Virus record (IMG/VR): IMGVR_UViG_3300036832_000330
Span: 29,648-93,647 of that record
DNA: 64,000 bases
Source of the DNA: a virus
Reading direction: 5' to 3' (one strand)
How positions within the stretch are numbered: position 1 is the stretch's first letter; every line of letters begins with the position of its first letter. Position numbers and translations under genes: made by a program. The notes below the pieces were generated by a model. That model was not told where the DNA came from. It ran no database searches and saw nothing but the letters and a program-made list of their open reading frames with translations. Shown here piece after piece: positions 3,860 through 38,055 of this stretch.

Positions 3860-4366
3860 TCACCACGTCATGGTCTGTACGAAGAAGTCCTGCTGCTGGG
3901 TGTCGTTGACCACCTCTTCGGCCTTGATCTGCTCGCCCAGCGCAGAGATGGTCATATAAGTGCCGTGGACGAAGCCTTGTTTTTCATACTTCGTCACCTT
4001 GTAGACGATGTTGTCGTAGCTGAACCGATCACGAAAATGGTTGGCGGTGTTGAGCGGGCTGATGCGAAAGCGGTCCATAGCCGCCGTCACCTGGAACACG
4101 ATGCTGGCGGTGGAGAGGACGTAGAAGCCCTCGTCGGTCTCCAAGGGGTCATCCTGGCGGAAGTCGACAAACATGACGGGTAGTACCACGGGTGGGTACC
4201 AGGCGCGGCTCGGTCCCTCGTCGTAGACCTGATGCTTGGTCGAGGCCATGGGGTCGTACTCAGCCCACAGGACGGCCTCGCCCCAGTATCGCTGGTAGTT
4301 CCGCATGACCTCGTTCATGCGGATGATCTGATCCTTCTGGTACCAGGCCGGCGTGTAGAGAGGCAT
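3860..4366 (-). CDS. putative head-closure/neck protein
   Basis: GEAVLWAEYD...RDRFSYDNIVYKV pattern; position in the neck operon. Confidence 0.55.
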   Translation of the reverse strand: MPLYTPAWYQKDQIIRMNEVMRNYQRYWGEAVLWAEYDPMASTKHQVYDEGPSRAWYPPVVLPVMFVDFRQDDPLETDEGFYVLSTASIVFQVTAAMDRFRISPLNTANHFRDRFSYDNIVYKVTKYEKQGFVHGTYMTISALGEQIKAEEVVNDTQQQDFFVQTMTW

Positions 4367-5007
4367 CAGAACAGCTTCCCTTGTGCTGACTTTGGCTTGA
4401 GCTTGGCTTTGCGCTTCTTGTCGGCTGCCGCCCTCTGAGCTAGCTCCTCCCGCTGATAGGGGTGGAAGCCGTAGTGGACGTTCTCCCAGATGGGAGGTTC
4501 ATGAGCAGGCTTGCCTAGTGGGGCGTGTACCTCTTCGGTGCGGTAGTTGGCCCAGACATCAGGCTTGAGGTCTGGTCGCACCCGGTTGGAGAAGCGTTCG
4601 CCGGCCTCAGAGCGTTCGGGTGAGTGGATGGGCACGGTCTCCTGGCCGAAGTTCCAGTAGTGCGCTGAATGAAATAGCGCGCCGGCCAGGCCCCTGGCTC
4701 TGGCATCTCCCTCTTTGGTGTGCCCGGTGGCGAGGTTCTCCACCATGGTGACTTCACCAGGGGTACCGGACCCTTTCCTGGCCCAGGACAACTCTGCCGC
4801 CACTGAGGGGTACTTCGGGTGCGATACGTCGACCGCAGCCAGGTGATGCTCGTGCGGTGACTGCTGCATATCGAGCATGTAGCCGTGGGCTATGGGACCG
4901 GCCCAGGGGTGGGCCAGGTGTTCCATGCCAGGCAGGGCTAGTTGGTGCGGGTTGATCTCGCGCTTGGTGCCGGCGAACTGCTCAGGGTTGAGGGCCTCGT
5001 GACTCAT
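4366..5007 (-). CDS. GNAT-like protein with MSHEALNPEQF leader
   Basis: ARARGLAGALF (motif A-like) followed by HSPERSEAGERF; paralogous to 35561 and 37609. Confidence 0.65.
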   Translation of the reverse strand: MSHEALNPEQFAGTKREINPHQLALPGMEHLAHPWAGPIAHGYMLDMQQSPHEHHLAAVDVSHPKYPSVAAELSWARKGSGTPGEVTMVENLATGHTKEGDARARGLAGALFHSAHYWNFGQETVPIHSPERSEAGERFSNRVRPDLKPDVWANYRTEEVHAPLGKPAHEPPIWENVHYGFHPYQREELAQRAAADKKRKAKLKPKSAQGKLF

Positions 5008-5609
5008 CGAGCCAACCTGTGCGCCACAGTGCGGTGATGACCCTCAGCGAGCCAGGTCTTGCCTCCATGCTCGTAGGTTTCTGGCTCGTAAGGCACGCTT
5101 TCACCGGGGTAGTCCGGGTCATGTCGCGGTACATCACCCTGGGCGTACTCCCGCAGGGTGGGCAAGTGGAGGTGGGCCTGGGATGTCCAGACTTCGCCAT
5201 GTGGATAGCCACGGCTCTCCCCGTACCCCTCAGCGGCACCGACGAGGTGGGGGGCAGCTACGAGGGGATCGGTATAAGGCTTGTGGGCCTCAGGGTTACG
5301 ACTGGTCTGGCGAATATCAGCCTGGGCGAAGACATGCTTGGCAACTCGGCCTCGGATCACATCAGGAGCTTCTTCACCACCCAGGGAGGGATGTACCCCT
5401 AGCAACTGGGCGACATTCTCAGGCTCTTCCTGGAAATCCCGCCAGGGGCGAGGGTCACCTCTACGTGCTGCTGTCTGCGCTCGCCCCAGACGAGCTTGGT
5501 TCTCAGGATCGAGCTTGGGCCGGTTGGCTGCGATGTGTTCTTGCACGCCTGTGGTGATGCGGTTCTTCCACTGCTCAAACTGCTCGTCGTTGAGAGCTTC
5601 GTGGCTCAC
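5004..5609 (-). CDS. ParB/Srx-like domain protein with MSHEALNDEQF leader
   Basis: VWTSQ...WLAEGHHRTVA motif. Confidence 0.6.
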   Translation of the reverse strand: MSHEALNDEQFEQWKNRITTGVQEHIAANRPKLDPENQARLGRAQTAARRGDPRPWRDFQEEPENVAQLLGVHPSLGGEEAPDVIRGRVAKHVFAQADIRQTSRNPEAHKPYTDPLVAAPHLVGAAEGYGESRGYPHGEVWTSQAHLHLPTLREYAQGDVPRHDPDYPGESVPYEPETYEHGGKTWLAEGHHRTVAHRLAR

Positions 5610-5610
5610 G

Positions 5611-6723
5611 TCACCACCAGCCGACCCAGCCTGTATTGATGGTGGTGTAGGCCCAGTAGTACCCGTAGCCGGTGGTGGGGTCCACGTCCCTGGTGGGGTC
5701 GATATTGGTGCTGGGCTGGAGGGCCACGTAGCGACGGTTCTGGTAGTCGATGAGATCCTGGGGTTGGTAGGTGTGTGTGGAGTTCCACAGGCCCTGGTAG
5801 CTGTACATCTTCTGGGTCACATCGATCTGTGGCATCTCCCGCTGGGGCCAGGTCAGGTCGTCGTACTCCTTGGACCGGTAGATGGGCACCAGCCGCTTGG
5901 TGGTGCGCGACACCCGCCGCAGCCTCGATTGGGTGATGCGGTACAGGCCCACGCCCAGGGCGCTCGACAGTGCCATGTACTGGCCGTTGAGCCGGTCGAT
6001 CATCTGGGTGATCTGATTGAAGGTCTGGCTGATCGGGATGGTGACGCCGTCCGGTGTATGGACATCGTGCTGCTGGGCTACGCCAGTGGCGATGTCCCAC
6101 AGGGCCATGACCGTGACCAGGATGGAGATGGGGTACTCCTCCACCTCAGTGATCATCATGGGGGCCGGTGTCCCGTAGTCGATGGGCTGGCCGGTAGTAC
6201 CCAGTGGAGGAGGTAGTACCGGGGGGTAGCCCTCATCGATCTCGCCGGCTGGGCTGGTGCCATAGGTGTGCTGCACATAGGCCGTGCGGACGTAGAGGTC
6301 AAGCTCGGCGGGCAGCAGGTCACGGTAGTAGGTGCCCTGGGCCACCAGGAGCATGCCGATGGCGGGGGCCTGGGTGAAGACCAGGACGCCACCATGCTCG
6401 TCCAGGACGTAGTCGAAGCCCAGGTTGGCTGAGGTAGTACCTCCTGCCGTGGTGTCGGTCAAGACCACCTGGAGGTTGGACGATGACACGTTCTCGACGG
6501 GAAGCTCAAAGCGAAAGGCCACGCCAGAGCAGGTCTGCCGGCAGATGAAGGGCCGGGGCAGATCCCGAAGTCGGAGTCGCGCCATCTGGGCGATCCGCTG
6601 CGTCGAAGAGGGGCTGACCGGCGGGTAGGCCAGCCCCTGATCGGTGTCGGGGTACTGCCCCGGCGATCCTGCCGTGATGTCATATGGGTTCGGAAGCCCG
6701 GAGACCGGCCCAGAGACTGACAC
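5611..6723 (-). CDS. putative head-tail adaptor/neck protein
   Basis: First gene of the leftward structural operon; RLRLRD N-terminus; C-terminal WNSTHTYQPQDLIDYQNRRYVAL CBM-like module. Confidence 0.55.
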   Translation of the reverse strand: MSVSGPVSGLPNPYDITAGSPGQYPDTDQGLAYPPVSPSSTQRIAQMARLRLRDLPRPFICRQTCSGVAFRFELPVENVSSSNLQVVLTDTTAGGTTSANLGFDYVLDEHGGVLVFTQAPAIGMLLVAQGTYYRDLLPAELDLYVRTAYVQHTYGTSPAGEIDEGYPPVLPPPLGTTGQPIDYGTPAPMMITEVEEYPISILVTVMALWDIATGVAQQHDVHTPDGVTIPISQTFNQITQMIDRLNGQYMALSSALGVGLYRITQSRLRRVSRTTKRLVPIYRSKEYDDLTWPQREMPQIDVTQKMYSYQGLWNSTHTYQPQDLIDYQNRRYVALQPSTNIDPTRDVDPTTGYGYYWAYTTINTGWVGWW

Positions 6724-6729
6724 ACACCC

Positions 6730-6777
6730 AGGCTAGGTCCGGGTGGTCAGGGGGGACGCGACACCCGGACCTAGCAT
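6730..6777. promoter_or_regulatory. symmetric divergent late-promoter pair
   Basis: 14-bp inverted repeat (6732-6745 / 6762-6775) giving CACCCGGACC-TAGCCT on - (6 nt before GTG 6723) and CACCCGGACC-TAGCAT on +. Confidence 0.6.
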
Positions 6778-6848
6778 TGTGGCTATCCGGTCTGATTCCA
6801 CCGGTCAGGTAGTACAGCTAGAAAATGCCCAGCCTTTTGTGAGGAAAA

Positions 6849-7265
6849 ATGCCTTCCTCGTCGTATAACTGCGTCAAAAAATCAGACGTGGCAAAGCTGG
6901 GAAAAGCTGTCTCTCAATACAAGAGGATCTCGGATTCCAAGACGGTCAGGAAGCAGGCGTCGAAAGCCGGCCAGCCGTTGCTGGAGCAGATGCAGGGTCT
7001 GATCCGGGGTGAACCCAGCCTGTCTGACTTCGGCCACATAGCCGACGCCATGCGGGTCTTCAGCCATGACGACAACGTCAGCGTCGGCTTGCCGGCGGAT
7101 CACCCCCTGCTGCCCTCAGCCCAACAGATGCACAACGTCTTCCAGGTCAGCGACGTGGCCTTCGACTTGGCCCAGCAGAGTGGTGAGGTGGAGGGGGCCT
7201 TCCATGACAACCTGGGCCTGCGGTCTCAGCCCTGGTGGCGACGCATGGTGGAGCAGATGCGATGA
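6849..7265 (+). CDS. hypothetical neck/tail-completion-region protein
   Basis: GAGGA RBS; first gene of the tail operon. Confidence 0.6.
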   Translation: MPSSSYNCVKKSDVAKLGKAVSQYKRISDSKTVRKQASKAGQPLLEQMQGLIRGEPSLSDFGHIADAMRVFSHDDNVSVGLPADHPLLPSAQQMHNVFQVSDVAFDLAQQSGEVEGAFHDNLGLRSQPWWRRMVEQMR

Positions 7266-7302
7266 CGATAAAGGAAGATCTTCCTATATCGGGGGTGGTG
7301 TC

Positions 7303-8028
7303 ATGACCCTGACCAACCCGCCCAACGATGTCGTCCCCAACCCTCCCTTCCTGGGTCTTTATACCGAAGAGGACATGGGCCTGAAGACGCACCTCCAGGG
7401 CCTCTATGTCAGTGATCTGAACGCCCCCAACGAGACCCGCCAGGTACCGGTGTGGTTTCACAATCCCGAAAGGGAGGAGCGGAGGATCACCTATCCCAAC
7501 ATCACCATCAACTTCACCGGAGAGCGGATAGCTCACGAGCGCGAGCATCGGGGCTGGGTGGGGATCGGCTATCGGTACCTCCAGGGCGTCCCCTTCGTCC
7601 TGGGATCAGAGCAAACCCCGCCGTCCATGGAGTACCCCATCCCCATGGACTTCGACTACACCGTCACGGCCAGCGCCCGGATCAACCAGCACATCTCCCA
7701 GATCTCTGGCAGCTTGGCGATGAGCAAGCTCCATCCCCGCTTCGCCCAGATGGAGTGCCCCGGTGGCACGGTGCGGAGGATCACGGTCATGGGCGTGAGC
7801 CGCACCAATAGCATGGAGTCCGACAAGCGGCTCTTTCGCCAGATCTACCAGCTTCGGATCTCCACCGAGATCGAGGATGTTGTCACTGCGCTCGGCACCA
7901 GGGTGGCCTGTGTTGTCCTGAGCGTCTTGGGTCAGGTGAATGTGAAGCTAGATGGCGGGTTGACGATCAGGGATATGCAGGGCGGCGTCCTGTGGGGTCC
8001 GCACACAATCACATCGGAGGAAGAATAA
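7303..8028 (+). CDS. tail terminator/sheath-stabiliser-like protein
   Basis: VPVWFHNPE..RITYP.I, P.PMDFDYTV motifs; immediately upstream of the sheath. Confidence 0.65.
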   Translation: MTLTNPPNDVVPNPPFLGLYTEEDMGLKTHLQGLYVSDLNAPNETRQVPVWFHNPEREERRITYPNITINFTGERIAHEREHRGWVGIGYRYLQGVPFVLGSEQTPPSMEYPIPMDFDYTVTASARINQHISQISGSLAMSKLHPRFAQMECPGGTVRRITVMGVSRTNSMESDKRLFRQIYQLRISTEIEDVVTALGTRVACVVLSVLGQVNVKLDGGLTIRDMQGGVLWGPHTITSEEE

Positions 8029-9894
8029 ATGCCCACCTTGACCAGGCCGGGGGTTTACGTCGATGAGTCGTCGTTCCCCACCTACATCGGTGCCACTCCC
8101 GGCACAGCCGCGGCGTGCTTCGTCGGCCCGTGCCCTCGCGGCCCGTGCCAGGTGGGTCAGTCGGGTGGGGCCAACCTGCCTGTCGCCTATGGGGTGACAC
8201 CGACGCGTGTCAACTCCTGGAGAGAGTTCACGGCCTGGTTCGGTGGCTTTGAGACTGCCTATCCCCCCAGCCTCCTGCACTTAGCTGTCTATTGCTTCTT
8301 CTCTGCGGGCGGCACCAATGCCACGGTCATTCGATCCATTCGTCAGGACGCCTCTGGGCCAGTGGTGGCGAGCCACACCTTCAATGACTCCCAGACCGTA
8401 GCGCCCCGAACCGTGACTGATGGCGTGACGACGAGTACGTCGGCCACGGTAACGTCAGCCACCGCCAACTTCACCACCAACGACATCGGCAGGACGATCT
8501 CGGGTGCCGGCATCCCTGCCAACAGCACGATCATCACGATCAACAGTGGCACCAGTGTCGTCATCTCCGCGAATGCCACGGCCACCGCTACCGCAGTCTC
8601 TCTGACTATCAGCGGCGGCGGCTTGCCTACCCTGGAGGTTGACGCAGCGAATCCAGGTGCGTGGGCCTCTGGTACGACCCAGAATCCCAACGGGGGACTG
8701 TGGATCGACATCCTGCCGGGAACCATCAGGGACTCCCACTCAAACATCATCAGCTTCACTATCCAAGTGAAGTATCAGGGCAATGGCCCCAACAATGTCG
8801 TAGAGCATTGGCCGGATCTATCCATGATCCCCGGTTCGACCAACCTGGGCCAGGCCAACTACGCCCCTGACATCATCAACAACCCCTACACCGGGTCGAA
8901 GTACATCCATCTGGTGGACAAGGGAAATGTGCCCACTCCCCCGGCTATACGCGACTACACCTGGAACCCGTCCACCACCACCGCTTCGCAACAGTTGACC
9001 GGTGGCTCTGACGGCCAGCCCATCACCTTCCAGGATCAACTGTCTGCTCTCCAACAACTGGATGCGTACCCGGAGCAGCCCTTCGTGATCAACATGCCGG
9101 GGCTGATCACCGGGTCGGACATCTCTAGCGTGGTGGGCTACGCCCAGACTCGTGGCGATAGCTTCGTGGTCATCGATTGCCCGCCGGCCTACAGCCCCAG
9201 CGCCATGGTCACCTTTGCCCAGGCTCTGTCGTCCAGTGCCCAGTGCGCCATCTACTACCCCCAGGTGAAGATCTCCGACCCGTACTCGGCGGTGCCGGGA
9301 GTGACGCGCATGGTGGCACCGGGTGGCTTCGTGGTCGGTCAGTACATCGCCACTGACGCCAGGCGGGGGGTGCAGAAGGCTCCCGCCGGCCTGGGCAACT
9401 CCCTCCTGGGGGCCTTCGGCGTGGAGACCATCCTCACCAACACTGACCAGGGCAACCTGACCCAGGCCAACGTCAACTGCATCATCTCGGTGCCTGGCGC
9501 AGGCGTGGTGATCTGGGGCGCTCGCACCCTGTCGCCTTACCTCGTCACCCGGTACGTCCCCGTCGAGCGCACTCTGCTCTATCTCGCCACTGAGATGACG
9601 GCCATGACCAAGTTCGCGGTCTTTGAGCCGAACGACTGGGTGTTGTGGAACATGATCACGTCGGTCCTCAGCCAGTTCTTGACCTCGTTCTGGCAGAGCG
9701 GTGGTCTGCGGGGGACGAGTATCTCGGAGGCGTTCTACGTCACCTGTGACAGCAGCGTCAATACGCCTCAGTCCATTCAGCAGGGCATCGTCAACGTCGA
9801 GGTCGGTGTGTCGCTCCAGTACCCCGCTGAGTTCGTCATCATCTCCATCGGCCAGTGGGCCGGTGGTCAGAGCGTCAGCGTCACCACTACCTGA
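8029..9894 (+). CDS. contractile tail sheath protein
   Basis: RPGVYVDE N-terminus; YYP, KAPAG, WGARTL, YVPVER, AVFEPND, PAEFV C-terminal motifs. Confidence 0.96.
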   Translation: MPTLTRPGVYVDESSFPTYIGATPGTAAACFVGPCPRGPCQVGQSGGANLPVAYGVTPTRVNSWREFTAWFGGFETAYPPSLLHLAVYCFFSAGGTNATVIRSIRQDASGPVVASHTFNDSQTVAPRTVTDGVTTSTSATVTSATANFTTNDIGRTISGAGIPANSTIITINSGTSVVISANATATATAVSLTISGGGLPTLEVDAANPGAWASGTTQNPNGGLWIDILPGTIRDSHSNIISFTIQVKYQGNGPNNVVEHWPDLSMIPGSTNLGQANYAPDIINNPYTGSKYIHLVDKGNVPTPPAIRDYTWNPSTTTASQQLTGGSDGQPITFQDQLSALQQLDAYPEQPFVINMPGLITGSDISSVVGYAQTRGDSFVVIDCPPAYSPSAMVTFAQALSSSAQCAIYYPQVKISDPYSAVPGVTRMVAPGGFVVGQYIATDARRGVQKAPAGLGNSLLGAFGVETILTNTDQGNLTQANVNCIISVPGAGVVIWGARTLSPYLVTRYVPVERTLLYLATEMTAMTKFAVFEPNDWVLWNMITSVLSQFLTSFWQSGGLRGTSISEAFYVTCDSSVNTPQSIQQGIVNVEVGVSLQYPAEFVIISIGQWAGGQSVSVTTT

Positions 9895-9905
9895 GAGGAG
9901 GACAC

Positions 9906-20392: not shown

Positions 20393-21978
20393 TGCCCCGT
20401 ACTTATGGCACCACCAACGTCATGCCCTACGCCTCTGCGCCGGCAGTGGGCGCGGTGGGCGACGAGTACTACAACACCACCAACAAGTTCCTGTACCTCT
20501 CGGACGGCACGGCCTGGAACGCCATTATGGGTGGGGGAGGAGGAGGTGGTGGCTCGCCGGCCTGGGTGGGCACCATCACCTCGCCGGTAGCGGGGACCAC
20601 CTACACCCTGACCCACAACCTCAACACCTCGACGCCCTTCGTGCAGCTATGGGATGCCGTCACGCTGGTGCAGGTCATCGGTCAGGTGGTGGCTGTCAAC
20701 GCCAATCAGGTACAGGTCACCTTCTCGGCCACCCCGGCCCACAACGTGACGGTGGTGGTAGGCGGCATCTCGGCGGTAGGCACGGCCACCTCCACTGGCC
20801 CCTGGACTGGGACCATCTCCACGCCCGCCGCCAATACCGCCTACACCCTGACCCACAGTCTGAATACCGCCACCCCCATCGTGCAGATGTACGACGCCGT
20901 GACCAGGGCACAGATCATGGGTCAGATCGTGGCGACCACCGTCAACTCCATCACGGTCACCTTCACCCAGGCCCCGCCCAACAACGTCACGGTGGTCATC
21001 AGCACGGGCGGCATAGCCGCCTCTGGTGTCGCGCCCTCTGGTCCCTGGACTTCCGCCATCGTCAGTCCCGCTGCCCTGACCACCTACACCCTGACCCACA
21101 GCCTGAATAGCTCTACACCTTTGGTGCAACTCTGGGATGCGGTCACCAAGCTCCAGGTGCAGGCCCAGGTGACGGCGCTCGACGCCAACCGCATAGCGGT
21201 CCTCTTCGCCACGGCCCCACCCAACAACGTCAACGTGGTGGTGAGCAGCGGAGGTGGCACGCCCGGACCCACGGCTGCCAATGTCTATTACCTGACCTAC
21301 TACCAGACCATCCCGGCAGTGCAGGCCGGCTCGCCCTACACCCTGAACCACAGGCTCAACAGCACCCAGATCATCGTGCAGCTATGGGACGCGACCACCC
21401 TCCAGTTGGTGCAGGCCCAGGTTCAGATCATCGACGCCAATAACATCCGCATCAGCGTGGCTCAGTCCATGCCCAACGCCGTGAACGCGGTGGTGATGAT
21501 CGGTCCTAGCACTCCTGCGGCGGTCAACCCTGGCGACATGGCGAGCAAATCCTACGTTGATACCGCAGGGTCCACCCGCTATGCCTTCAGGGGTGTGCGG
21601 ACTGCTGCGCTTAACTCATCTGGCACAGCAGCCACTTCACAGATCGTGGTGTTCGATCAGGCACCTGTCAATCAGGGCAACTGTTACAACACTACTACCG
21701 GTCTGTATACCTGCCCGGTTGCTGGTGTGTACATGGTTCACGGCGGGTTAGGGTGGAACCTGAGTGCGTCGGGCCAGGGTTTTACACAAATATTTAAAAA
21801 CGGTGCCGAAGTGCGACGTGTAGGTATTACCAGCTCTGGATATGCCGAGACTAGTGTTACATACATCGATCTGTGCGTGGCAGGGGACACATTCCAACTG
21901 AATAATCAGAGTTCGTTGACTACCCAAGGTATTCGGCTCGGCACTGAAACCTACTTCAATGCTGTATTCATGGGATAG
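20392..21978 (+). CDS. tail fibre with four THxLN..VQLWDA repeats and a C-terminal C1q-like domain
   Basis: Four ~75-aa repeats; AF..R..IVVFDQ..NQGNCYNTTTGLYTCPVAGVY C1q signature. Confidence 0.8.
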   Translation: MPRTYGTTNVMPYASAPAVGAVGDEYYNTTNKFLYLSDGTAWNAIMGGGGGGGGSPAWVGTITSPVAGTTYTLTHNLNTSTPFVQLWDAVTLVQVIGQVVAVNANQVQVTFSATPAHNVTVVVGGISAVGTATSTGPWTGTISTPAANTAYTLTHSLNTATPIVQMYDAVTRAQIMGQIVATTVNSITVTFTQAPPNNVTVVISTGGIAASGVAPSGPWTSAIVSPAALTTYTLTHSLNSSTPLVQLWDAVTKLQVQAQVTALDANRIAVLFATAPPNNVNVVVSSGGGTPGPTAANVYYLTYYQTIPAVQAGSPYTLNHRLNSTQIIVQLWDATTLQLVQAQVQIIDANNIRISVAQSMPNAVNAVVMIGPSTPAAVNPGDMASKSYVDTAGSTRYAFRGVRTAALNSSGTAATSQIVVFDQAPVNQGNCYNTTTGLYTCPVAGVYMVHGGLGWNLSASGQGFTQIFKNGAEVRRVGITSSGYAETSVTYIDLCVAGDTFQLNNQSSLTTQGIRLGTETYFNAVFMG

Positions 21979-21987
21979 GACGGGCTG

Positions 21988-22545
21988 ATGACACTCCTCA
22001 ACTACACCTACCCGATCCCTCTCCCGGCCCCGGTTACGTCGGGGTCAGGTATCCAGAGCTATACCGATCCGATGGGTGACGTATGGGTAGCTGCCAATGG
22101 GGTGAACTCGGGCAACTGGAAGCGGGCCAGAGATGCGTTGCATTGTGAGTATTATCGGGCGGCTGCCTGGACGACTCCAACTTCGTTGTCGGCGGTAGCT
22201 ATGGATCAGGTCATCGAGGATTTCTATGGCCTATACAATGCCAACACTGGTGTGTTCTCGGTTCCGGTCACAGGACTGTACCTGCTTAACTTTTCCGTAG
22301 CGGCGACGGCGACCGCGATCAACCAATGGCTGAACTGCGTTCTCGTTAACACTGGCGGTAGCATGGTAGCGCAGTTCCAGAACTACGCCGGTGCCGCCGC
22401 CAACTTTACCTCTGCCACCATTTACCAACGTGCCCTCGCTAACACGGAGACAATCACTACCAAGGTGAACGCTAGTGTTGGCATGACAGGGAGTATCGGT
22501 GTGAATGCGAGTCGATTTGGGGCCGTATACCTGGGGACAAGCTGA
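21988..22545 (+). CDS. C1q-like receptor-binding tip protein, paralog 1
   Basis: Conserved N-block PAPVTSG..TDP.GDVWVA.NG..W.RARD; YNANTGVFSVPVTGLY. Confidence 0.75.
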   Translation: MTLLNYTYPIPLPAPVTSGSGIQSYTDPMGDVWVAANGVNSGNWKRARDALHCEYYRAAAWTTPTSLSAVAMDQVIEDFYGLYNANTGVFSVPVTGLYLLNFSVAATATAINQWLNCVLVNTGGSMVAQFQNYAGAAANFTSATIYQRALANTETITTKVNASVGMTGSIGVNASRFGAVYLGTS

Positions 22546-23105
22546 TGAGCTTTCCTACCTACGCCGATCCCATCCCCACCCCGGCTCCCCTCACGTCGGG
22601 CACCACCACTCAGAGCTTCACTGACCCTCTGGGTGACGTGTGGGTAGCCAAGAACGGGGTCAGAGGTGGCAACTGGTACCGGGCCAGGGACGTGCTGCGT
22701 TGTCACTACAGTCGGGCCGCAGCCTTCAACTTCACCAACGCCAATGTTGTCCTCGCATATGACACGGTGAACACGGGTGGCGATTCATACGGCCTTATGG
22801 CGGGGGGTGCCTTCACGGCACCAGTAGCCGGTGTCTATATGTGGTTCCTTCAGGTTTGTGGCACGGCTACAGCCGCCGCTCAGTGGTTTCAGTTGACGGG
22901 TCTAAACAATGGGGCGTTTGGCTGGAGCCAAAACCGTGTCTATGCTGTGGGGGCGGGCAACGTCACCCTTTCAGTGACCGATTCACAGCCCCTGAACGCT
23001 ACTGACACCATACAGCCGCAGATCATCTGTTCAGCAGCTTCTCTGGCTGGTGTTGCCAACGGACTACTCACCTATGGATTCTTCAACTACATGGGGACGG
23101 GCTGA
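22545..23105 (+). CDS. C1q-like receptor-binding tip protein, paralog 2
   Basis: Same N-block; GAFTAPVAGVY; TGATG coupling. Confidence 0.75.
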   Translation: MSFPTYADPIPTPAPLTSGTTTQSFTDPLGDVWVAKNGVRGGNWYRARDVLRCHYSRAAAFNFTNANVVLAYDTVNTGGDSYGLMAGGAFTAPVAGVYMWFLQVCGTATAAAQWFQLTGLNNGAFGWSQNRVYAVGAGNVTLSVTDSQPLNATDTIQPQIICSAASLAGVANGLLTYGFFNYMGTG

Positions 23106-25497: not shown

Positions 25498-25505
25498 GAG
25501 GACGC

Positions 25506-25748: not shown

Positions 25749-26266
25749 TGCCACGTCTGTTGGTCTGCCGGGAGTGCAAGACCATCGAGGAACTCCCGCT
25801 CTACAACGGCTCGCCCAAGCTTGAGGCCCAGGATCCCCTCCTGGACAACCTCGTGCGCCGGCACGTCCAGGCCCATGACACCAAGGACGACACCGCTGCC
25901 CTCCTGGTGGCGTCGGAGGAGGCGTGCAACTGCGTCAAGTGCAAGGGTCGCTACACCTTCTGGCAGGCCCACCGGGACGAGGTGTTGAAGGGCCTGGGCG
26001 AGCGGTGGACTGGCTTCCACCCGGAGTTCTACGCCACCAAGGACACCTACAAAGAAGATGCCATGCGGTGCTACAACATCCACCGCCGGCCCAAGGGCAC
26101 CGACTGCATCGACTACCGCGACGACGGGCGCAAGCTGACCGGGAAGAACTGGCCCAGGGATAAGGCCGTCTACCTCTGTGACTTCTGCCCGGTGGAGACC
26201 CAGGTGACCACGGCCATCCGCCATGCCGCCGGCATGTACAAGAGAGCGCCAGGCGAAGTTGACTGA
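25748..26266 (+). CDS. Cys-rich putative zinc-binding protein
   Basis: CREC, CNCVKC, YLCDFCP; TGATG coupling. Confidence 0.7.
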   Translation: MPRLLVCRECKTIEELPLYNGSPKLEAQDPLLDNLVRRHVQAHDTKDDTAALLVASEEACNCVKCKGRYTFWQAHRDEVLKGLGERWTGFHPEFYATKDTYKEDAMRCYNIHRRPKGTDCIDYRDDGRKLTGKNWPRDKAVYLCDFCPVETQVTTAIRHAAGMYKRAPGEVD

Positions 26267-26519
26267 CCTCAACGGCTCGGAGCCGCCGCCCCAGCAGGTA
26301 CTCACCCTGTTCCTGGTGGTGGTCGACCTGGATGGCTCCTCCAGGGCGGTCCTGGACACTGAAGAGCGGTTCATGGCCCAGCGCATCGCTGGCCCCAAGG
26401 ATGTCTACCCGGCCCTGGCGAACGTCCTGGCTGACTTCGCCGGCCTCAAGGCAGCGGAGGCCATGGTCTCCTTCCAGATGCAGATGGCGCGACAGGCTGC
26501 TGCTCACCAGGAAGGCTGA
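26259..26519 (+). CDS. hypothetical protein
   Basis: TTG start overlapping the previous stop; good codon bias. Confidence 0.6.
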   Translation: MTDLNGSEPPPQQVLTLFLVVVDLDGSSRAVLDTEERFMAQRIAGPKDVYPALANVLADFAGLKAAEAMVSFQMQMARQAAAHQEG

Positions 26520-26558
26520 GGACTGTCTACAGAGGCCCCTACACGTCGCTGTGACCGC

Positions 26559-26759
26559 CTACAGCCGACTCTGGGCAGTCCAGCCCTCCAGGTACTGGTA
26601 GGCGTCCTCCAGGGGCACTGAGGCATCGTGGGGGTGCCCACAGATCCACTCCCCCCAGCGGTCCCGGAAGCAAGGAGGACCGCTGGCGTCTTCCACCAGG
26701 AAGCTACGCCCAGAGGGACGTAGCTCCTGGGGAGTGCGGACGCCGCGCTGGACTGCCAC
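26559..26759 (-). CDS. hypothetical protein
   Basis: GTG coupled to the stop of the IPT gene. Confidence 0.45.
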   Translation of the reverse strand: MAVQRGVRTPQELRPSGRSFLVEDASGPPCFRDRWGEWICGHPHDASVPLEDAYQYLEGWTAQSRL

Positions 26760-28454: not shown

Positions 28455-28473
28455 TTTTTCCAGGCTGGACGCG

Positions 28474-29551: not shown

Positions 29552-30009
29552 GGCCATACCGCGGTGGGATAGACATCGATCAGCCGGCGGCGGTACCTGT
29601 CGTAGGGCACCCAGACCGGCTGACCGGTGCGCTCGATCTCCTGCTGGATGTCCCAGTAGCGGTCGTAGCGGCGGCGATAGCGTGCCCGCACCGCCAGGTA
29701 CCAGAGGGCGTAGATAGGCAGGGCCACGAAGACGAAGACGGCGTCGACTCCACCGAAGACCGCCGCGCTGCCGAAGGCGATGAGCATGCCGGTGTACCAG
29801 CGTTCCCAGTGGTGCTTCTGGCTCTGCATCAGGGCTTCGCATCCGTAGGGATCCATGTAGCGCCCTAGTCTGCGCCGGCTCTTGACCTGGCGGAACGAGG
29901 GGGCTGGCGGCTTGGGAGAGCCGCGTAGCCCAGCCCAGTAGCTCTGAGAGTCGAGGAGGTAGCCGGCGTACTTCGGGTTCTGTTGCGGTGGTGGTAGTTG
30001 GATTGCCAT
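29548..30009 (-). CDS. two-TM membrane protein
   Basis: TACCAT-N6-ATG start; two hydrophobic helices. Confidence 0.65.
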   Translation of the reverse strand: MAIQLPPPQQNPKYAGYLLDSQSYWAGLRGSPKPPAPSFRQVKSRRRLGRYMDPYGCEALMQSQKHHWERWYTGMLIAFGSAAVFGGVDAVFVFVALPIYALWYLAVRARYRRRYDRYWDIQQEIERTGQPVWVPYDRYRRRLIDVYPTAVWP

Positions 30010-30043
30010 GGCTACATGGTACCACATGTATGAGTGAACGTGG

Positions 30044-31253: not shown

Positions 31254-31261
31254 GAGGGTAG

Positions 31262-32261: not shown

Positions 32262-32408
32262 GTCGCTGCCCTGGTCGGACTCTTCCAGACGGGCTACGAG
32301 ATCTTCCTTCTTGCCGGTCTTGGGCAGATCCCGCTCGGCTAGCTCGTCCTTCAACTCAGCCACGGTCTGGCTCTCGTAGGGGGTCTCGGTTTCGTTCTCT
32401 TCGGGCAT
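32211..32408 (-). CDS. small SAP/HeH-domain protein
   Basis: TVAELKDELAERDLPKTGKKEDLVARL; AGGAG RBS. Confidence 0.75.
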   Translation of the reverse strand: MPEENETETPYESQTVAELKDELAERDLPKTGKKEDLVARLEESDQGSDSEEDQDGSQDSGGDES

Positions 32409-32438
32409 GCCTCTACTCCTGCCCCTCTGGCCGGCGCG

Positions 32439-32696
32439 TCAATCAGCAGGGATCAGGTTCTCCAGCATGCCCAGGCACGCCTCCAGGTGCAGGCGTAGCT
32501 CCAGTAGCTGATCGAGTTGGGTCTCTCGGTCATCGGCAAGCTGTCGGTACCGGGAGATGGTCTGGCCGCACTGCATGAGGATCAGGTCGACCTCGTTGAC
32601 GAGTTCCGGCTCCCGCAGGGAGGCTGACCGGTCCCTGGCCTTCTTCCAGAACCCGGTGTCGCGTCGATCTCTTCGCCAGTCCTTAAGAACTGACAC
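32439..32696 (-). CDS. hypothetical helical protein
   Basis: In operon; codon bias. Confidence 0.6.
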   Translation of the reverse strand: MSVLKDWRRDRRDTGFWKKARDRSASLREPELVNEVDLILMQCGQTISRYRQLADDRETQLDQLLELRLHLEACLGMLENLIPAD

Positions 32697-33480
32697 TGGC
32701 TGACTTGCCCACCCTGACCAGGCGTCGCCGCTGTGGAAGCTCGGTGATGGTGGCTAGCTCGGGCTTGCTCACCCGCTTCTTGGCCTCTCGCTCCTTGAGC
32801 CGCCTGGCTCGGGCCTTCTCCAGTTCCCTCTGCTTGGCCTTGTCAGCCGCCCTGGCCTCCTTGGACCCCGGCACCAGGCCGTCCTTCCTGGGACGGCCAC
32901 GAGGCCGCTCGGAGGGGGTCTTGTTGGCTCCAGGAGGTGGGATGGAGAAGGCTGTCTTGGTGAAGGTGTGCCGGGGTCCGAACTTGGTCCGGGATCCCGG
33001 TGTGTTGAAGTCCAGGGTGGCCTTGGACTCCGACTCCAGGGGCACCGCCGGCAGGACGTACTGGGCCGGCTTGGTCTGCACCACGATCTTGAAGTCGCTG
33101 CCGGCCAGGGACAGGGCGTCCTGGACGTGAGCCGGCAGCCCGTTGGTTGGCCCGGTGTTGAAGATCGAGTTGGCCCACGCCTCGATGTCGGCCTGGGTCT
33201 TGATCTGCTTGTTCAGGAGGCCCTTGACCCTGATCCCCAGCTTCTCTAGTTGAGGGATGGTGTCAGGGAAGGCGGCTAGAAGCTCCAGGGCGTTCTGCCG
33301 CAGCTTGTCGACGCGCTCGGGGTTAGACGAGTACTCCATCCCCGGCCAGATGACGGCAGTGTTCCTGAACCACGTCCAGGTGCCCCCGTTGTAGACCGGG
33401 ATATAGCCCACTCTCCCCAGCTTGAGGCTGCCGTTGGAGGCAGTGATTTTTTGCCAAGCCTCAGTTCCGTTCAACTCCAC
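32683..33480 (-). CDS. AT-hook-containing basic protein
   Basis: RPRGRPRK motif and K/R-rich C-terminus. Confidence 0.65.
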   Translation of the reverse strand: MELNGTEAWQKITASNGSLKLGRVGYIPVYNGGTWTWFRNTAVIWPGMEYSSNPERVDKLRQNALELLAAFPDTIPQLEKLGIRVKGLLNKQIKTQADIEAWANSIFNTGPTNGLPAHVQDALSLAGSDFKIVVQTKPAQYVLPAVPLESESKATLDFNTPGSRTKFGPRHTFTKTAFSIPPPGANKTPSERPRGRPRKDGLVPGSKEARAADKAKQRELEKARARRLKEREAKKRVSKPELATITELPQRRRLVRVGKSASVSS

Positions 33481-33814
33481 TCTCCAGATCACTCGCTCTA
33501 GCCACGGCGTCATGCCAGTCCCGCTCCAGGGGGGAGTCGCTCAGGATACGGGGTGGTTTCCCACGAATCCAGACGCCTGACGCGTAGGCATGATGTTTTT
33601 TCCTGAGCATGATACCCAGGCCGTGCCGCCAAGGAGGAGTGATCTCTCGGGTCAGGGCTACGGAGAGCCGGCGTTGCCAGGGGTTGGGCTGGCCGCTCCA
33701 GAAGTAGAAAATCGACCAGGACTTGGTGTTGTCAGGAACTGAGGAAGCGTCGGGGAGGTGGGGTAGTACCCAGTCGTTTTCCTCTGGGTCTCGGCTGTCG
33801 GGGTGGATCTCCAA
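33461..33814 (-). CDS. hypothetical protein
   Basis: In operon; start uncertain. Confidence 0.5.
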   Translation of the reverse strand: MEIHPDSRDPEENDWVLPHLPDASSVPDNTKSWSIFYFWSGQPNPWQRRLSVALTREITPPWRHGLGIMLRKKHHAYASGVWIRGKPPRILSDSPLERDWHDAVARASDLESGVERN

Positions 33815-33922
33815 GAGCTTTTTCGTTCTCTTCCAGGGCCTGGTCGATCTGGGCTAAAAGAGCGTCGATCCGCTCATTCAGCACCGGGGCTTTTTTGGGC
33901 GGATCGCACTTCTTCGCCATGG

Positions 33923-34405
33923 CTACTCAATGCTCCCCCAGCCGCCTTGACCGTAGGGGTAAGCGTTCAGGACGGCGTTGATGTATCGCCCAGGAGACTC
34001 CACCCGCTTGAAGCGGTTCCAGATCCTGGGGGGCACGTTGGAGTAGTGCCAGGGTGTGCCATCGCGGAAAATGACCTCCAGTTGTTGCAGGTTCCGGGAG
34101 TAGCGCGCCTGGAGGGTCCGGGGTCTAGGAGGGTTGATCGTCCTGGTGGGCCAGTAGTAGTCCCAGGCCGGATCCGGGGTGGGGCCGAATGGCCCCTGGG
34201 TGCCGTGTGGCTCCTCGTCGGAGACCAGGGGGAAGTCCTCAGGCCGCACGTACTGGGGGTGCAGCTTGAGCATGGCGTTACGGGCGCGCTCCTCCCGTGC
34301 CTGGGAGTAGCTGTCGTAGCCGCGGGCCTTCTCCCGCTCGTTGCGGACTGCGTAGTAGCTGATGTCCCTCCGGGTCGCTTCGGCCCGGATGGACTCCCTG
34401 GGCAT
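33923..34405 (-). CDS. KTSC-domain protein
   Basis: ARY....LEVIFRDG..W.Y.NVP..W..F....SPGRYIN. Confidence 0.8.
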   Translation of the reverse strand: MPRESIRAEATRRDISYYAVRNEREKARGYDSYSQAREERARNAMLKLHPQYVRPEDFPLVSDEEPHGTQGPFGPTPDPAWDYYWPTRTINPPRPRTLQARYSRNLQQLEVIFRDGTPWHYSNVPPRIWNRFKRVESPGRYINAVLNAYPYGQGGWGSIE

Positions 34406-34408
34406 TGG

Positions 34409-34717
34409 CTAAGGCGCGGTCAGGCCAGGGAGGGAGGGCCTCATGACGGGCACCTGTGCCCCGGCGCTGTTGGCTACGAACGCCTTCTGGTCGGTCCAGC
34501 CCCCGAAGGGGTCGGTGGCGTTGACCGTGACCCAGTTGCCGGGGCTAGCCAGGCCGGGGTAGGGCGGGATCGAGGTGGTCATGTTGATGAGGTCGAAGAT
34601 CGGCCCCACACCGGGGAACACGGTGTTGCCCACATACGGGGTACCGGGCGGGTTGGGGGCAGTCGGTACCGATCCGCCGCCTTGTGCCGTCCAGGCCCGC
34701 CAGTCCACTACGCCCAT
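34409..34717 (-). CDS. Pro/Gly-rich hypothetical protein
   Basis: AAGGA RBS; codon bias. Confidence 0.55.
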   Translation of the reverse strand: MGVVDWRAWTAQGGGSVPTAPNPPGTPYVGNTVFPGVGPIFDLINMTTSIPPYPGLASPGNWVTVNATDPFGGWTDQKAFVANSAGAQVPVMRPSLPGLTAP

Positions 34718-34718
34718 G

Positions 34719-35060
34719 TCATCCTTCTTTCACTCGCTTGACGGGTGTGCCCTTCAGTCGGGCCAGATTGGCTCGGACGAGGTACAGATCCTTCAGCACC
34801 TCATCGATGATCTCGATCTGCCGGCCTGGGTCGGTCTCCTCCATCATCTGGCTCAGACCGCCCAGGACGTTCCTGGTCCGATGCTCCCAGGACAGCATTG
34901 GCTCCTTGGGCTTGACGGCTCGGGCCGGATGCTCCTGGTCGAAATGTGCTTGCACGTCGGCGTCGATGGCGGTGTTGCACAGGTAGCAGAACCCGTGGGC
35001 AACCTGAGCATCGGACACGAGATCCAGCCTAGGTGGCCGGGGTGGCGCGACCTGGGGCAC
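34719..35060 (-). CDS. C2H2-like Zn-finger protein
   Basis: CYLC...HFDQEH. Confidence 0.55.
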   Translation of the reverse strand: MPQVAPPRPPRLDLVSDAQVAHGFCYLCNTAIDADVQAHFDQEHPARAVKPKEPMLSWEHRTRNVLGGLSQMMEETDPGRQIEIIDEVLKDLYLVRANLARLKGTPVKRVKEG

Positions 35061-35073
35061 CTAGGCTTGGGGC

Positions 35074-35343
35074 GTGTCGATCCCATTCTCAACCCAGCAG
35101 TTTGAGAAAAAACCAAACCGGAAAATGCCCCGGACTACCGTGCGTTTAGACAAGGTCGTTGCTACTCAAGGGAAGCTGGACTCGGCCAAGGTGCAGAGCA
35201 TCGCCCAGAGAGGGGCTGATGACGGCACTGATCCTCTGGTAGCCCCGTTCCGGGGCAAGTACTACGTCCTCGATGGTCACCACCGGGTGGCTGGGGCCAT
35301 GGAGCGCGGTGACACCAAGATCAAGGTCAGACGGGTCAAGTGA
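35074..35343 (+). CDS. ParB/Srx-like N-terminal domain protein
   Basis: VVATQ..PLV..GKYYVLDGHHR; TAGGCT-N6-GTG start. Confidence 0.8.
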   Translation: MSIPFSTQQFEKKPNRKMPRTTVRLDKVVATQGKLDSAKVQSIAQRGADDGTDPLVAPFRGKYYVLDGHHRVAGAMERGDTKIKVRRVK

Positions 35344-35561
35344 GAAAGGTTAGCAAGGCGAAGCTTCTCGAGGGCCGCACCCCACGGGCCACCAACATCA
35401 GCCAGTTCTACGACGGGGCCAACGGCTCTCGTCACCCTGGTGACTGGCCCAGCCTCCTACGCCGGTCCTGGGAGCTTCGCTACGGCCAGACCCAGCCCTA
35501 CCCCTACGGCCCGGACAATGTCCAGAGTCCGGGATCCAGAGCCAGCCAGTACACAAGCTGA
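35340..35561 (+). CDS. hypothetical protein
   Basis: GTGA/TGATG coupling on both sides. Confidence 0.55.
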   Translation: MRKVSKAKLLEGRTPRATNISQFYDGANGSRHPGDWPSLLRRSWELRYGQTQPYPYGPDNVQSPGSRASQYTS

Positions 35562-36085
35562 TGGCAAGCAGACGCCGCCAACGGGCTAAGACGATGGCCC
35601 GTCAACGTGAGAACGTGCTGGTGATCCATCCCAGTCACACCGGGATTCCTGGTGGTGTAGGTGAAGCCCTGCACAAGGTGGCAGCCCAGGAACCTGATGT
35701 CAGATTCGGCTGGCGGAAGAGGGATGAGCACGAAGCAGTAATCCACGCTTCGATTCCTGACGCTGACGAGCGTGCCGGGATCGGGCACATGACCTGGCAC
35801 GCCGGTCCTGCCAAGCCCGAACGCGTCAGGACGAATAGGTATGGTGAGGAAGTCCGTGATCCTGCGGTGGGTCAGGGTGAGATCGATGAGCTACACGTCG
35901 ATTCGGCCTATCGTCGGCAGGGCATCGCCTCAGCCATGTGGCACGTCAGCCGCCAGTTGCTGCCCTACGTCGCGCCTGAGCATTCGCCTCACCGGACCAA
36001 GAAGGGTGACGCCTGGGCGCGGGCCGTGGGAGGCCCTCTGCCCAAGCAGCAAGAAGCCGCCTGGAACCCGCTGAGGGACGACTGA
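35561..36085 (+). CDS. GNAT-family acetyltransferase
   Basis: EIDELHVDSAYRRQGIASAM; HSPHRTKKGDAWA. Confidence 0.85.
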   Translation: MASRRRQRAKTMARQRENVLVIHPSHTGIPGGVGEALHKVAAQEPDVRFGWRKRDEHEAVIHASIPDADERAGIGHMTWHAGPAKPERVRTNRYGEEVRDPAVGQGEIDELHVDSAYRRQGIASAMWHVSRQLLPYVAPEHSPHRTKKGDAWARAVGGPLPKQQEAAWNPLRDD

Positions 36086-36609
36086 TGAGCGTGGCCCTGG
36101 TCGCTATCGAGGGTGTCCTGGGGGAGAGCAGTGTCCTCCACGGCTTCTATCCCATCGTGGACGGGGTCAAGCTGGCCCACGCCTTGCGCTCGGGCTACCG
36201 GCTGTTCTTCAGCAGCGTCCAGGCCGGCGCGGAGGCGGTCGAACATTGGCTGCATATCAACGGCATGACCCAGCCGGCCTTCTACGAGAACTTGATAATC
36301 AGGGACTCAAGATGGACCGATTTGTCCGATTCTCAGCTTCGGGCAGAGCATGCTGCTCACTTGAGGCGTCTGGGGGTCGACCTGGGCCTGGTGGTGTCGG
36401 GAGACCCGGCCACTGTCCTCCTGGTGAGTGAGATGGGTGTGCCATCGCTGCTGTTCTCCAACCCGGCCTACCGCTGGGGGGAGTACCGGCCTGACCGCAA
36501 GAGGCTGCCCAAGCCCTGGCAGGACATCGATAACGAGATGGTCCGACAGATGGAGCTAAAGGCCGGTGATCCCCGGCTCTCTGACGAGGAACAGGTGGAG
36601 CGCATATGA
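36085..36609 (+). CDS. HAD-like fold protein (degenerate motif I)
   Basis: VALVAIEGVL in place of hhhDxDGVL; PI.DG..L; D...V......GVPSLLF. Confidence 0.6.
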   Translation: MSVALVAIEGVLGESSVLHGFYPIVDGVKLAHALRSGYRLFFSSVQAGAEAVEHWLHINGMTQPAFYENLIIRDSRWTDLSDSQLRAEHAAHLRRLGVDLGLVVSGDPATVLLVSEMGVPSLLFSNPAYRWGEYRPDRKRLPKPWQDIDNEMVRQMELKAGDPRLSDEEQVERI

Positions 36610-36833
36610 GCATAGGTGCCATCAGTGAAAAGCAGTTCAACACCCAGAGGTCGCTCCTGGCCCAGGGCAACTCGGATGAGTTGGCTACCCAGGTGCGCGG
36701 TACCCAGACCATGACCTCCAATATCTTTCGGCCCTCCTTCTACCATGACCTCACCACGGTGCGCGGCATGCCCTCTGGCACCCAGTTCAAGATGGGGGGA
36801 GCGGGTGAGGAAGAGGGAGAAGAGGGGATGTGA
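36606..36833 (+). CDS. small hypothetical protein
   Basis: ATGA coupling; N-terminus MSIGAISEKQF. Confidence 0.55.
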   Translation: MSIGAISEKQFNTQRSLLAQGNSDELATQVRGTQTMTSNIFRPSFYHDLTTVRGMPSGTQFKMGGAGEEEGEEGM

Positions 36834-37612
36834 GCCAGCGCGCCCTCAACGCGGAGCAGTTCGGACGTACCGCCTCCCAGGTGGGATACGAGGAGGGTCG
36901 GAGCAGGCCCGATTTTCGTCGGTTGAGTGAGGCTCATAAGGCCAAGGGCGGCAATGTCGCAGATGCCTGGACACCTCATATCCAGGGGCAACTCTTCGAC
37001 CCGGCTGAGCTTCCTTCGATCCCCGCCCACCACCAGCTTCCTGAGCAGTTCGCTGCTGATCCCCAGACGTGGTTCCATGCTCGGGTCATGAAGGAGGCCC
37101 AGCCCAAGGCCCCCAAGGGGGCAGGGGCAGAGGGCTTTCACGCCGGCACCCGGCTCTCAGCCATGCAGCGTCTTCGGTTCAACGTCAAGCGCAGGGGCCT
37201 GAAGGAGGGCCTGGTTGGTCGCGTGTTCCCGCTACGGGCTACTGGGGACTTTGAGGAGGGGTTCCAACGGGAGCCAGAACCCACCAAGAACCCCTTCCGA
37301 AAGGGTCCGGGCAGTATCCGCCACACTGGCCTGGGCGGGGCCGAGAAGGGCTATCGGTACAAGAACGCGGTGGAGGACGAAGGCTCTATATCCATAGGTG
37401 CCCCCCAACGGGCCGGCTTCCTGTCCACCCACAAGGAGATGGTGGGTGCTGCCAAGGCCCGTGGTGAGTATGTCCACCCCAACGTGGAGTGGGCTGCCAA
37501 GCATTACCCCGAACACACCGGAGAAGTGGCAGCGCGCTCTGAGCCGTCCCGGTATTGGTCGCCTCCCGTGACAAACGAGCAGCAGTTCTGGCCTGGTCAG
37601 GGGTACAAATGA
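36830..37612 (+). CDS. ADP-ribosyltransferase-like (polyvalent-protein ART type) with MSQRALNAEQF leader
   Basis: WFHA...GFHAGT..SA..R...YRYKNAVEDEGSIS pattern. Confidence 0.5.
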   Translation: MSQRALNAEQFGRTASQVGYEEGRSRPDFRRLSEAHKAKGGNVADAWTPHIQGQLFDPAELPSIPAHHQLPEQFAADPQTWFHARVMKEAQPKAPKGAGAEGFHAGTRLSAMQRLRFNVKRRGLKEGLVGRVFPLRATGDFEEGFQREPEPTKNPFRKGPGSIRHTGLGGAEKGYRYKNAVEDEGSISIGAPQRAGFLSTHKEMVGAAKARGEYVHPNVEWAAKHYPEHTGEVAARSEPSRYWSPPVTNEQQFWPGQGYK

Positions 37613-38055
37613 GCCACCAGGCACTCAACCCGGAGCAGTTCCAGATGTTCAAGGCCAACCCGAAGGAGATGGGTGGTCGACCGACTCATACCGTCGAGGC
37701 ATGGGCACCTGAGCATGTTGGCACCGACTGGGCCAAGGCCCGCCCTGAGGAGCGGGAGCATTATGCCGGCTCAAGCGCGGACCCCGGTCATCGACCCATG
37801 GGATCGATCTCTTGGCACCACAAGACCGGTGAGATCCTGGGCATGTACGTTGACCCTGCACACCAGCGTCAGGGTGTGGCAACGGCTATGTACCGCCATG
37901 CTCATAGTGTCGCTACCGAGACCAGGGGCGTAACGCCACCACGGCACTCCTCGTTCCGTACCACCTCTGGGGAAGCCTGGGCGCGCTCTCTAGGGGAGCG
38001 TCTACCGAAGCATTTGCAGCTTCATGGGACTCTCGGGGAATGGCAGCCGGCGTGA
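37609..38055 (+). CDS. GNAT-family acetyltransferase with MSHQALNPEQF leader
   Basis: EILGMYVDPAHQRQGVATAM; HSSFRTTSGEAWA; ATGA overlap. Confidence 0.85.
   Translation: MSHQALNPEQFQMFKANPKEMGGRPTHTVEAWAPEHVGTDWAKARPEEREHYAGSSADPGHRPMGSISWHHKTGEILGMYVDPAHQRQGVATAMYRHAHSVATETRGVTPPRHSSFRTTSGEAWARSLGERLPKHLQLHGTLGEWQPA

Follow-up and report, generated by a model that had tools for sequence, protein, structure and literature searches.

A short N-terminal peptide as a portable tag on interchangeable accessory enzymes in a clade of soil myoviruses

Introduction

Why should several small proteins of one phage, otherwise unlike one another in sequence, begin with nearly the same eleven residues? The question is raised by a 64,000-nucleotide stretch of the virus record IMGVR_UViG_3300036832_000330 of IMG/VR (positions 29,648 to 93,647; hereafter the window, in whose numbering coordinates are given unless stated otherwise), in which four genes at two loci start with MSHEALNPEQF or close variants of it, here called the tag. 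The window comprises the last 64 kb of a 93,647-bp phage record with 62% GC and a CheckV completeness estimate of 80%. Our analysis establishes that the tag is a portable address or docking tag, selected as a peptide and borne by interchangeable accessory enzymes. As to what it addresses, loading of these enzymes into the virion emerges tentatively as the best single reading, and we weigh it below against three alternatives.

The phage is a myovirus, as is evident from its large terminase, SPP1-type portal, coiled-coil scaffold, 336-aa capsid protein and tail sheath, and its head module runs in the order portal, a gene for an HExxH protein, scaffold and capsid. Among cultured phages it comes closest to a set of Streptomyces phages (LuckySocke, Alone3, GiJojo, pSt2308 and BRock), whose capsid proteins are 70–71% identical to its own, and protein- and pattern-based scans of the IMG/VR and JGI metagenomes recovered many soil-derived contigs that form one clade with it (portals 85–93% identical). 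The genome has no T4-like genes, and we found no sliding clamp gene in it. The tagged genes have no relatives among GenBank phages, and BRock and LuckySocke carry neither this tag nor any other shared N-terminal tag. We found no description of the tag sequence or of its clade in the literature; both appear to be undescribed, while the principle of such a tag is already known from the phages T4 and P1.

Conservation and distribution of the tag

The four tags lie where the preliminary description had placed them, each directly after an ATG or GTG (Table 1); the first two are on the minus strand, a point on which that description was silent. The pattern S..ALN.EQF has only these 4 matches in the six frames of the whole genome, and the back-translated tag pattern likewise returns 4, against 0.00 in 100 shuffles. 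Without the tag, the four proteins share no significant pairwise similarity (best E-value 0.13), by which full-length paralogy is ruled out and their description as unrelated is borne out. Nor is the tag part of the GNAT fold, because the tagged GNAT acetyltransferase at 37609–38055 has a related but untagged GNAT in the same operon. Two weaker variants that had been pointed out, MSIGAISEKQF and (GTG)SIPFSTQQF, turn out to belong to real families conserved in relatives: the former family reads MSxxALSN(K/Q)QF there, and the N-terminus of the latter is kept in 5 genomes as (V)S(I/V)P(F/L)STxQF.

Table 1. Features of the window and the genome that bear on the tag (aa, amino acids; nt, nucleotides)
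Feature	Position	Strand	Remarks
Tag 1, MSHEALNPEQF	4975..5007	-	first 11 codons of gene 4366-5007
Tag 2, (GTG)SHEALNDEQF	5577..5609	-	start of gene 5004-5609
Tag 3, (GTG)SQRALNAEQF	36830..36862	+	start of gene 36830-37612
Tag 4, MSHQALNPEQF	37609..37641	+	ATG overlaps stop of upstream gene (ATGA)
Tagged 213-aa protein, site A	4366..5007	-	weakly GNAT-like; ends ...AQGKLF (nt 4369-4383)
Tagged 201-aa protein, site A	5004..5609	-	C-terminal EGHHRT motif; ParB/Srx-like unconfirmed
Tagged 260-aa protein, site B	36830..37612	+	ART (ADP-ribosyltransferase)-like label unverified; QGQLF at nt 36983-36997
Tagged GNAT acetyltransferase, 148 aa	37609..38055	+	Pfam Acetyltransf_1 1.8e-7
Untagged GNAT paralogue	35561..36085	+	E 5e-13 to tagged GNAT 37609-38055, same operon
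Conserved 75-aa gene, variant tag MSIGAISEKQF	36606..36833	+	first gene of site-B cassette array in every relative
89-aa ParB/Srx-like protein, distant variant (GTG)SIPFSTQQF	35074..35343	+	first gene of site-B operon
Untagged HExxH 425-aa protein, site-B array	38531..39808	+	HELGH at nt 39233-39247; QGTLF at nt 38603-38617
Conserved 370-aa structural-module gene, left anchor of site A	5611..6723	-	weak tail-fibre PHROG match
Conserved 168-aa structural-module gene, right anchor of site A	3860..4366	-	homologues flank site A in relatives
TGT/DpdA-like 481-aa gene, downstream anchor of site B	39780..41225	+	phrog_887 1.3e-41; synteny
35-nt promoter-like element	6743..6777	+	before tail operon
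35-nt promoter-like element	35033..35067	+	ends 7 nt before GTG of site-B operon
35-nt promoter-like element	genome 20630-20664 (L014:2630-2664)		just after terminase gene, head module

Among the relatives, a loose DNA pattern of the tag matched 23 times in five contigs, whereas its reversed control matched once. When the motif was searched without its initiator, 62 of the 63 matches were still placed directly after an ATG or GTG, and the 63rd lay four residues in. In all, the soil-metagenome relatives contributed 51 distinct tagged proteins, and BLAST sorts what remains of them behind the tag into 16 groups; among these are GNATs, Arr-ms rifampin-type ADP-ribosyltransferases, a family with a GHHR motif, DUF7002-like and YunG-like proteins, zinc ribbons and mini-proteins of 43–56 aa. 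Pfam confirms the GNATs and also the Arr-ms domain (1e-12), the latter starting at residue 11–14. The consensus over these proteins is MSHxAL(N/S)x(E/Q)QF, usually in the form MSH(R/E)AL(N/S)x(E/Q)QF. The tag is thus restricted to N-terminal regions and modular, as had been proposed: it is found on many unrelated small enzymes of diverse domain content (at least 16 sequence groups) and swaps between two loci.

A tag profile run against 1.84 billion proteins gave seven matches at E≤1e-3, five of which begin at residue 1 of small phage-like proteins, the other two being unrelated internal LSDEQF helical repeats. A search for the canonical tag in 185,579 species genomes returned a single match, which is at chance level: a 57-aa open reading frame (ORF; L015:4454-4627, minus strand) on a 6.3-kb contig of a Burkholderia metagenome-assembled genome. 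Burkholderia was considered as a host on this ground and rejected, with about 0.3 matches expected and a control pattern matching the same genome. Because bacterial genomes stand at chance level and the 1.84 billion proteins hold only 5 N-terminal matches, the tag is not a mimic of a common host motif.

Selection on the peptide

In a DNA alignment of the four tags, conservation extends only from the start codon to the terminal TTC/TTT codon. The DNA around tags, over 40 nt upstream and 47 nt downstream, contains about 0 bits of information. Within the tag the residues are fixed while their codons vary (Ala by GCC/GCT/GCA/GCG, Leu by CTC/CTG/CTT, His by CAC/CAT), in proportions near the genome bias. 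Since third codon positions vary synonymously and the flanking DNA is unconserved, selection acts at the level of the peptide, in agreement with the preliminary description. Two features do belong to the DNA. Codon 2 is always an AGY serine codon (23/23 unascertained tags, against 39% genome-wide), and 36 of 47 tagged starts overlap, as RTGA, with the stop codon of a preceding ORF that is 30 or more codons long, a configuration that indicates translational coupling. A regulatory RNA or a recombination site was considered as the conserved entity and mostly rejected, these two features being all that is seen at the DNA level.

Orthologues narrow the tag down to a core. Across the 37 sequences of the GHHR family the tag hardly changes, while anything from 0 to 53 residues separates it from the conserved domain. 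The orthologues of the GNAT-like protein at site A begin with MPELNHAQF, MVAPENLNSTQF or MVALNPTQF, and some have 13–35 extra residues ahead of HRLNQ(E/Q)QF. Given these replaced or extended starts, the conserved core can be defined as L-(N/S)-x-x-Q-F within a flexible N-terminal region; it usually occupies residues 6–11 and lies up to about 35 residues in for some orthologues. A free N-terminus is thus no strict requirement, and this speaks against a role of the core in N-terminal chemistry or as an N-degron. In an AlphaFold2 model of the 5004-5609 protein (predicted local distance difference test score, pLDDT, 67) residues 1–6 are disordered and a helix starts at residue 8, an arrangement that fits a helix cap formed by (N/S)-P-E-Q.

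The tagged proteins

The domain labels first given to the four proteins fared unevenly. That of GNAT holds for the tagged protein at 37609–38055, and for the one at 4366–5007 it is weak: this protein has no Pfam match and joins the GNATs by single linkage only, with an E-value of 0.005 to the untagged GNAT. The ParB fold proposed for the 5004-5609 protein is unconfirmed, as no structure matched above Z 4 and sulfiredoxin reached only Z 3.2; the protein has 29 homologues, nearly all of them tagged, and a 53-aa linker behind the tag that is missing from most orthologues. The ADP-ribosyltransferase proposed at 36830–37612 has no family match, and its AlphaFold2 model (pLDDT 40) is too poor to use. 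Profile searches against the PDB returned nothing useful, and the Atlas yielded weak leads only (ART-PolyVal 0.85, VapB/ParB 0.90). As for the variant-tag protein at 35074–35343, it matches Pfam PF23719 (8.6e-6) and ParBc_2 (0.002).

The 36830-37612 protein contains, besides the QGQLF motif, an internal relic of a tag, AHHQLPEQF (nt 37025–37051). Its layout suggests that a tagged mini-gene (the tag plus QxxLFDP) has fused with a tagged enzyme gene; a gene of either kind is indeed present separately in the relative L007 (compare L007:3412-4193, minus strand).

The genome further codes for two paralogous HExxH metallopeptidase-like proteins, one in the site-B array and the other, L014:7793-8671 (plus strand), directly after the portal gene, the usual place of MuF. 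Both genes are unique to this genome among its close relatives; a tagged member of the HExxH family is present at site A in the relative L104.

Cargo-like proteins also share another short motif, QGxLF(D/N)P, with 7 occurrences where shuffles give 0.76. In addition to the three sites of the window (Table 1), QGxLF is found in the genes at genome positions 21309–22991 (L014:3309-4991) and 25793–26671 (L014:7793-8671). The GNAT-like proteins of site A end in it at their very C-terminus, as QG(K/R)LF, and their orthologues keep this ending; in P0031 and L089 the motif follows directly behind the tag. To judge by sequence, QGxLF fits the consensus QL(S/D)LF by which proteins bind the bacterial beta-clamp (PMC9690074).

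Cassette sites and a shared promoter-like element

The tagged genes occupy two sites. Site A lies between the 370-aa gene, whose homologues are 76–91% identical in the relatives and 35% identical to the gp82-like proteins of BRock and LuckySocke, and the 168-aa gene; LuckySocke (genes 82/83) and BRock have the homologues of both side by side. In about 30 relatives the gap between them measures 4–1909 nt and holds tagged genes, membrane-protein genes, HNH-like genes or nothing. Where tagged cassettes are wanting (L090:2145-3330, L108:2826-3460, L103:2262-3280), we observed HNH-like genes with a WLCECECG motif or genes for small membrane proteins. Thus, the statement that two tagged genes sit between neck genes stands insofar as they are flanked by conserved genes of the structural module; their position says little alone, however, because site A is a general insertion hot spot.

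Site B is situated between the conserved 75-aa variant-tag gene and the TGT/DpdA-like gene, and the tag or a variant of it is seen on nearly every gene of its arrays. The GHHR family resides at site A in the present genome and in G002, and at site B in G001 and G005, and genomes as close to one another as those of this clade hold different cassettes. Ahead of the site-B array there are always conserved genes that bear no tag, namely a GNAT, a HAD-like gene, a ParB/Srx-like gene and a 73-aa gene; the first three are present in every genome of the clade, such that their linkage is inseparable from phylogeny. Downstream of the tagged array, the TGT/DpdA-like gene (plus strand) is accompanied by a gene for a family-2 glycosyltransferase with TPR repeats at 43922–45064 (plus strand), a combination that hints at DNA base hypermodification.

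A GC-rich, 35-nt promoter-like element of the form GTGGYCRGGGKGG...CGCGAC...ACCTAGSMT stands before the site-B operon and before the tail operon, in the latter case back-to-back with the start of the site-A operon. Scans for sigma-70 promoters and for terminators contributed nothing useful. A two-block scan found exactly three copies in the genome, the third being in the head module, and the 2 matches in the window compare with 0.00 expected. The copy before the tail operon has a palindromic partner, with a -10 box TAGCCT at 6730–6735 (minus strand), from which 6 nt lead to the GTG that opens the site-A operon. At two of the three places the arrangement is palindromic and divergent, with leaderless GTG starts, and in the relative G002 the element recurs at the same three places; putative early genes have a different box, TACCAT. 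Should the element be a promoter or operator, the tagged operons would share a regulon with the head and tail genes, and its placement suggests that tagged genes may be expressed together with virion genes. Beside the site-B copy, the minus-strand gene 34719-35060 probably starts at the GTG at 35018 (TAGGCT-N7-GTG, leaderless) and not at 35060, the start of the longest ORF.

Virion loading and its alternatives

We propose that the phages of this soil clade place a flexible N-terminal tag on interchangeable effector cassettes, such as GNATs, Arr-type ADP-ribosyltransferases, GHHR proteins, zinc ribbons and HExxH proteins, and that one common receptor would read all of them. This receptor would most likely be a component of the assembling virion, in which case the cassette products would be produced alongside the structural proteins, packed into the particle and delivered together with the DNA, and their loading would have no need of a maturation protease. 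By its likeness to the capsid-targeting sequence of T4 and the loading segment of P1 DarB, virion loading is the best single reading of the tag, and we put its probability at about 45%. The promoter-like element common to the head module, the tail operon and the site-B operon lends it further, indirect support.

Several observations weigh against it. The tagged proteins are neither unusually basic nor acidic, their charge being the same as that of other small proteins. The genome lacks Phage_Mu_F, and no Peptidase_S78 prohead protease was found in it by a search whose controls worked, in a genome estimated at 80% completeness, which means that the route taken in T4, by a scaffold core and cleavage, is not simply transferable; a search for Peptidase_S77 had no match in the genome and none in the controls either. 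The variable distance of the core motif from the N-terminus likewise speaks against a mechanism that is T4-like in detail. BRock and LuckySocke share the virion gene set without having the tag, and consequently no receptor can be named. The other occupants of site A, including none at all, are a further point, as is the continuation of site B into a DNA-modification gene and a glycosyltransferase gene, which are not expected virion cargo; and the promoter-like element could mark a class other than late genes. Among candidate partners of the tag within the phage, a tag-like SPQQPF in the scaffold is not kept in orthologues, and the HExxH proteins fail as a universal tag protease or receptor, being absent from the complete relatives G001 and G002.

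The strongest competitor holds that the tag docks the enzymes on a hub in the cytoplasm, be it a machine of the host or a phage protein outside the virion, by which they are concentrated on one target without being packaged. Several of the same proteins carry QGxLF(D/N)P, which fits the clamp consensus in a phage without a clamp of its own, and hence seem already to dock on cellular hubs by linear motifs; the tag core can lie up to about 35 residues from the start, as linear motifs do, and site B adjoins DNA-modification genes. Yet no host or cellular protein bears the tag, though true hub motifs are normally common to the clients of the host, a generic docking motif has no need of so strong an N-terminal restriction, and the promoter-like element is common to the head and tail operons. 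On balance we consider a hub somewhat unlikely.

The tag could instead be the recognition site of a shared processing, modifying or controlling factor, for example a protease or an N-terminal acetyltransferase, or else a chaperone or an inhibitor by which toxic enzymes are silenced until they are needed. The genes that always lie ahead of the site-B array (GNAT, HAD-like, ParB/Srx-like and 73-aa) would provide candidates, as would the HExxH metallopeptidase-like genes within the same arrays. However, both HExxH genes are confined to this genome and missing from complete tag-bearing relatives, 30 kb separate the conserved site-B genes from the cassettes of site A, no partner shows a specific linkage, and the motif can lie well inside the chain, contrary to what chemistry at a free N-terminus or an N-degron would demand. 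We regard such a factor as decidedly unlikely.

Very improbable, finally, is a by-product of the DNA, namely a functionless peptide at a junction kept by cassette recombination and stop-start coupling: the RTGA overlaps, the AGY codon and the evident movement of cassettes between sites would suit it, but beyond codon 2 the codons follow the genome bias while the amino acids stay fixed, the four tags of one genome differ at many synonymous sites, the immediate flanks are unconserved, and the core persists in orthologues whose first residues were replaced or extended.

Virion loading and clamp docking might also be combined. It is conceivable, as a long shot, that these actinophage-like myoviruses use a two-label system, wherein L-N/S-x-x-Q-F loads enzyme cassettes independently of a protease and QGxLF parks some of them on the sliding clamp of the host, the two together replacing the covalent linkage seen in polyvalent proteins.

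Should virion loading hold, the capsid-addressing trick of T4 and P1 would have arisen a separate time in a distant lineage, one in which no maturation protease was found; the tag would name candidate injected effectors of phages of soil actinobacteria (Arr-type and other ADP-ribosyltransferases, acetyltransferases and GHHR proteins) and would offer a very short portable handle for putting proteins into such phages. Should the receptor instead be a hub of the host, the tag would point to a new vulnerable node in the latter. Either way, it provides a simple sequence rule to find the fast-evolving accessory genes of the clade.

Comparison with known systems

The nearest parallel, already drawn in the preliminary description and apt, is the capsid-targeting sequence of T4, which is the only conserved part of the hypervariable internal proteins and of the ADP-ribosyltransferase Alt (PMC3012670), and which is portable to foreign proteins (PMC3012670; PMC9024508, discussion). 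In both cases a peptide of about ten residues is found at the N-terminus of hypervariable small proteins, directed in T4 (IPI, IPII, IPIII and Alt) and presumably here against the host or its defences, an ADP-ribosyltransferase among them. The two peptides, that of T4 being MKTYQEFIAE, bear no resemblance to each other. Moreover, the core of the present tag tolerates N-terminal extensions, and the head module around it is SPP1-like (a portal, a separate scaffold and an uncleaved capsid protein), with no prohead protease of the T4 or HK97 type found.

In P1, an N-terminal segment of DarB, a protein of the Dar antirestriction system, suffices (more than 9 and at most 30 residues) to load a reporter into the capsid of a myovirus, the natural cargo being an anti-defence enzyme (PMC9024508). 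That signal has no sequence relation to the tag and was described for one large protein, not for many small cassettes. Outside phages, the cargo-loading peptides of encapsulins, whose shell is capsid-like, and the encapsulation peptides of bacterial microcompartments are likewise short terminal peptides that address unrelated enzymes into a protein shell. These act in cellular compartments, are mostly C-terminal in the case of encapsulins, and differ from the tag in sequence. The clients of the beta-clamp offer the analogy for a hub, with one short linear motif common to unrelated enzymes; QGxLF fits their consensus (PMC9690074), whereas the tag core L-(N/S)-x-x-Q-F does not, and no host protein bears it.

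The repertoire of cassettes recalls the polyvalent proteins, whose ART, GNAT, ParB/Srx and zincin-like metallopeptidase domains are predicted to be delivered at invasion (Iyer et al. 2017, PMC5512222). The same domains are met here, Arr-ms and GNAT by Pfam, HExxH by motif, and ParB/Srx by the GHHR motif and weak matches only. Unlike the MuF fusions, the present system has no MuF, and the HExxH gene beside the portal is peculiar to this genome. The architecture also differs: polyvalent proteins join two to fifteen domains in one polypeptide, whereas the tagged proteins are products of separate, translationally coupled genes of 43–260 aa, in which a short common peptide would take the place of the covalent linkage.

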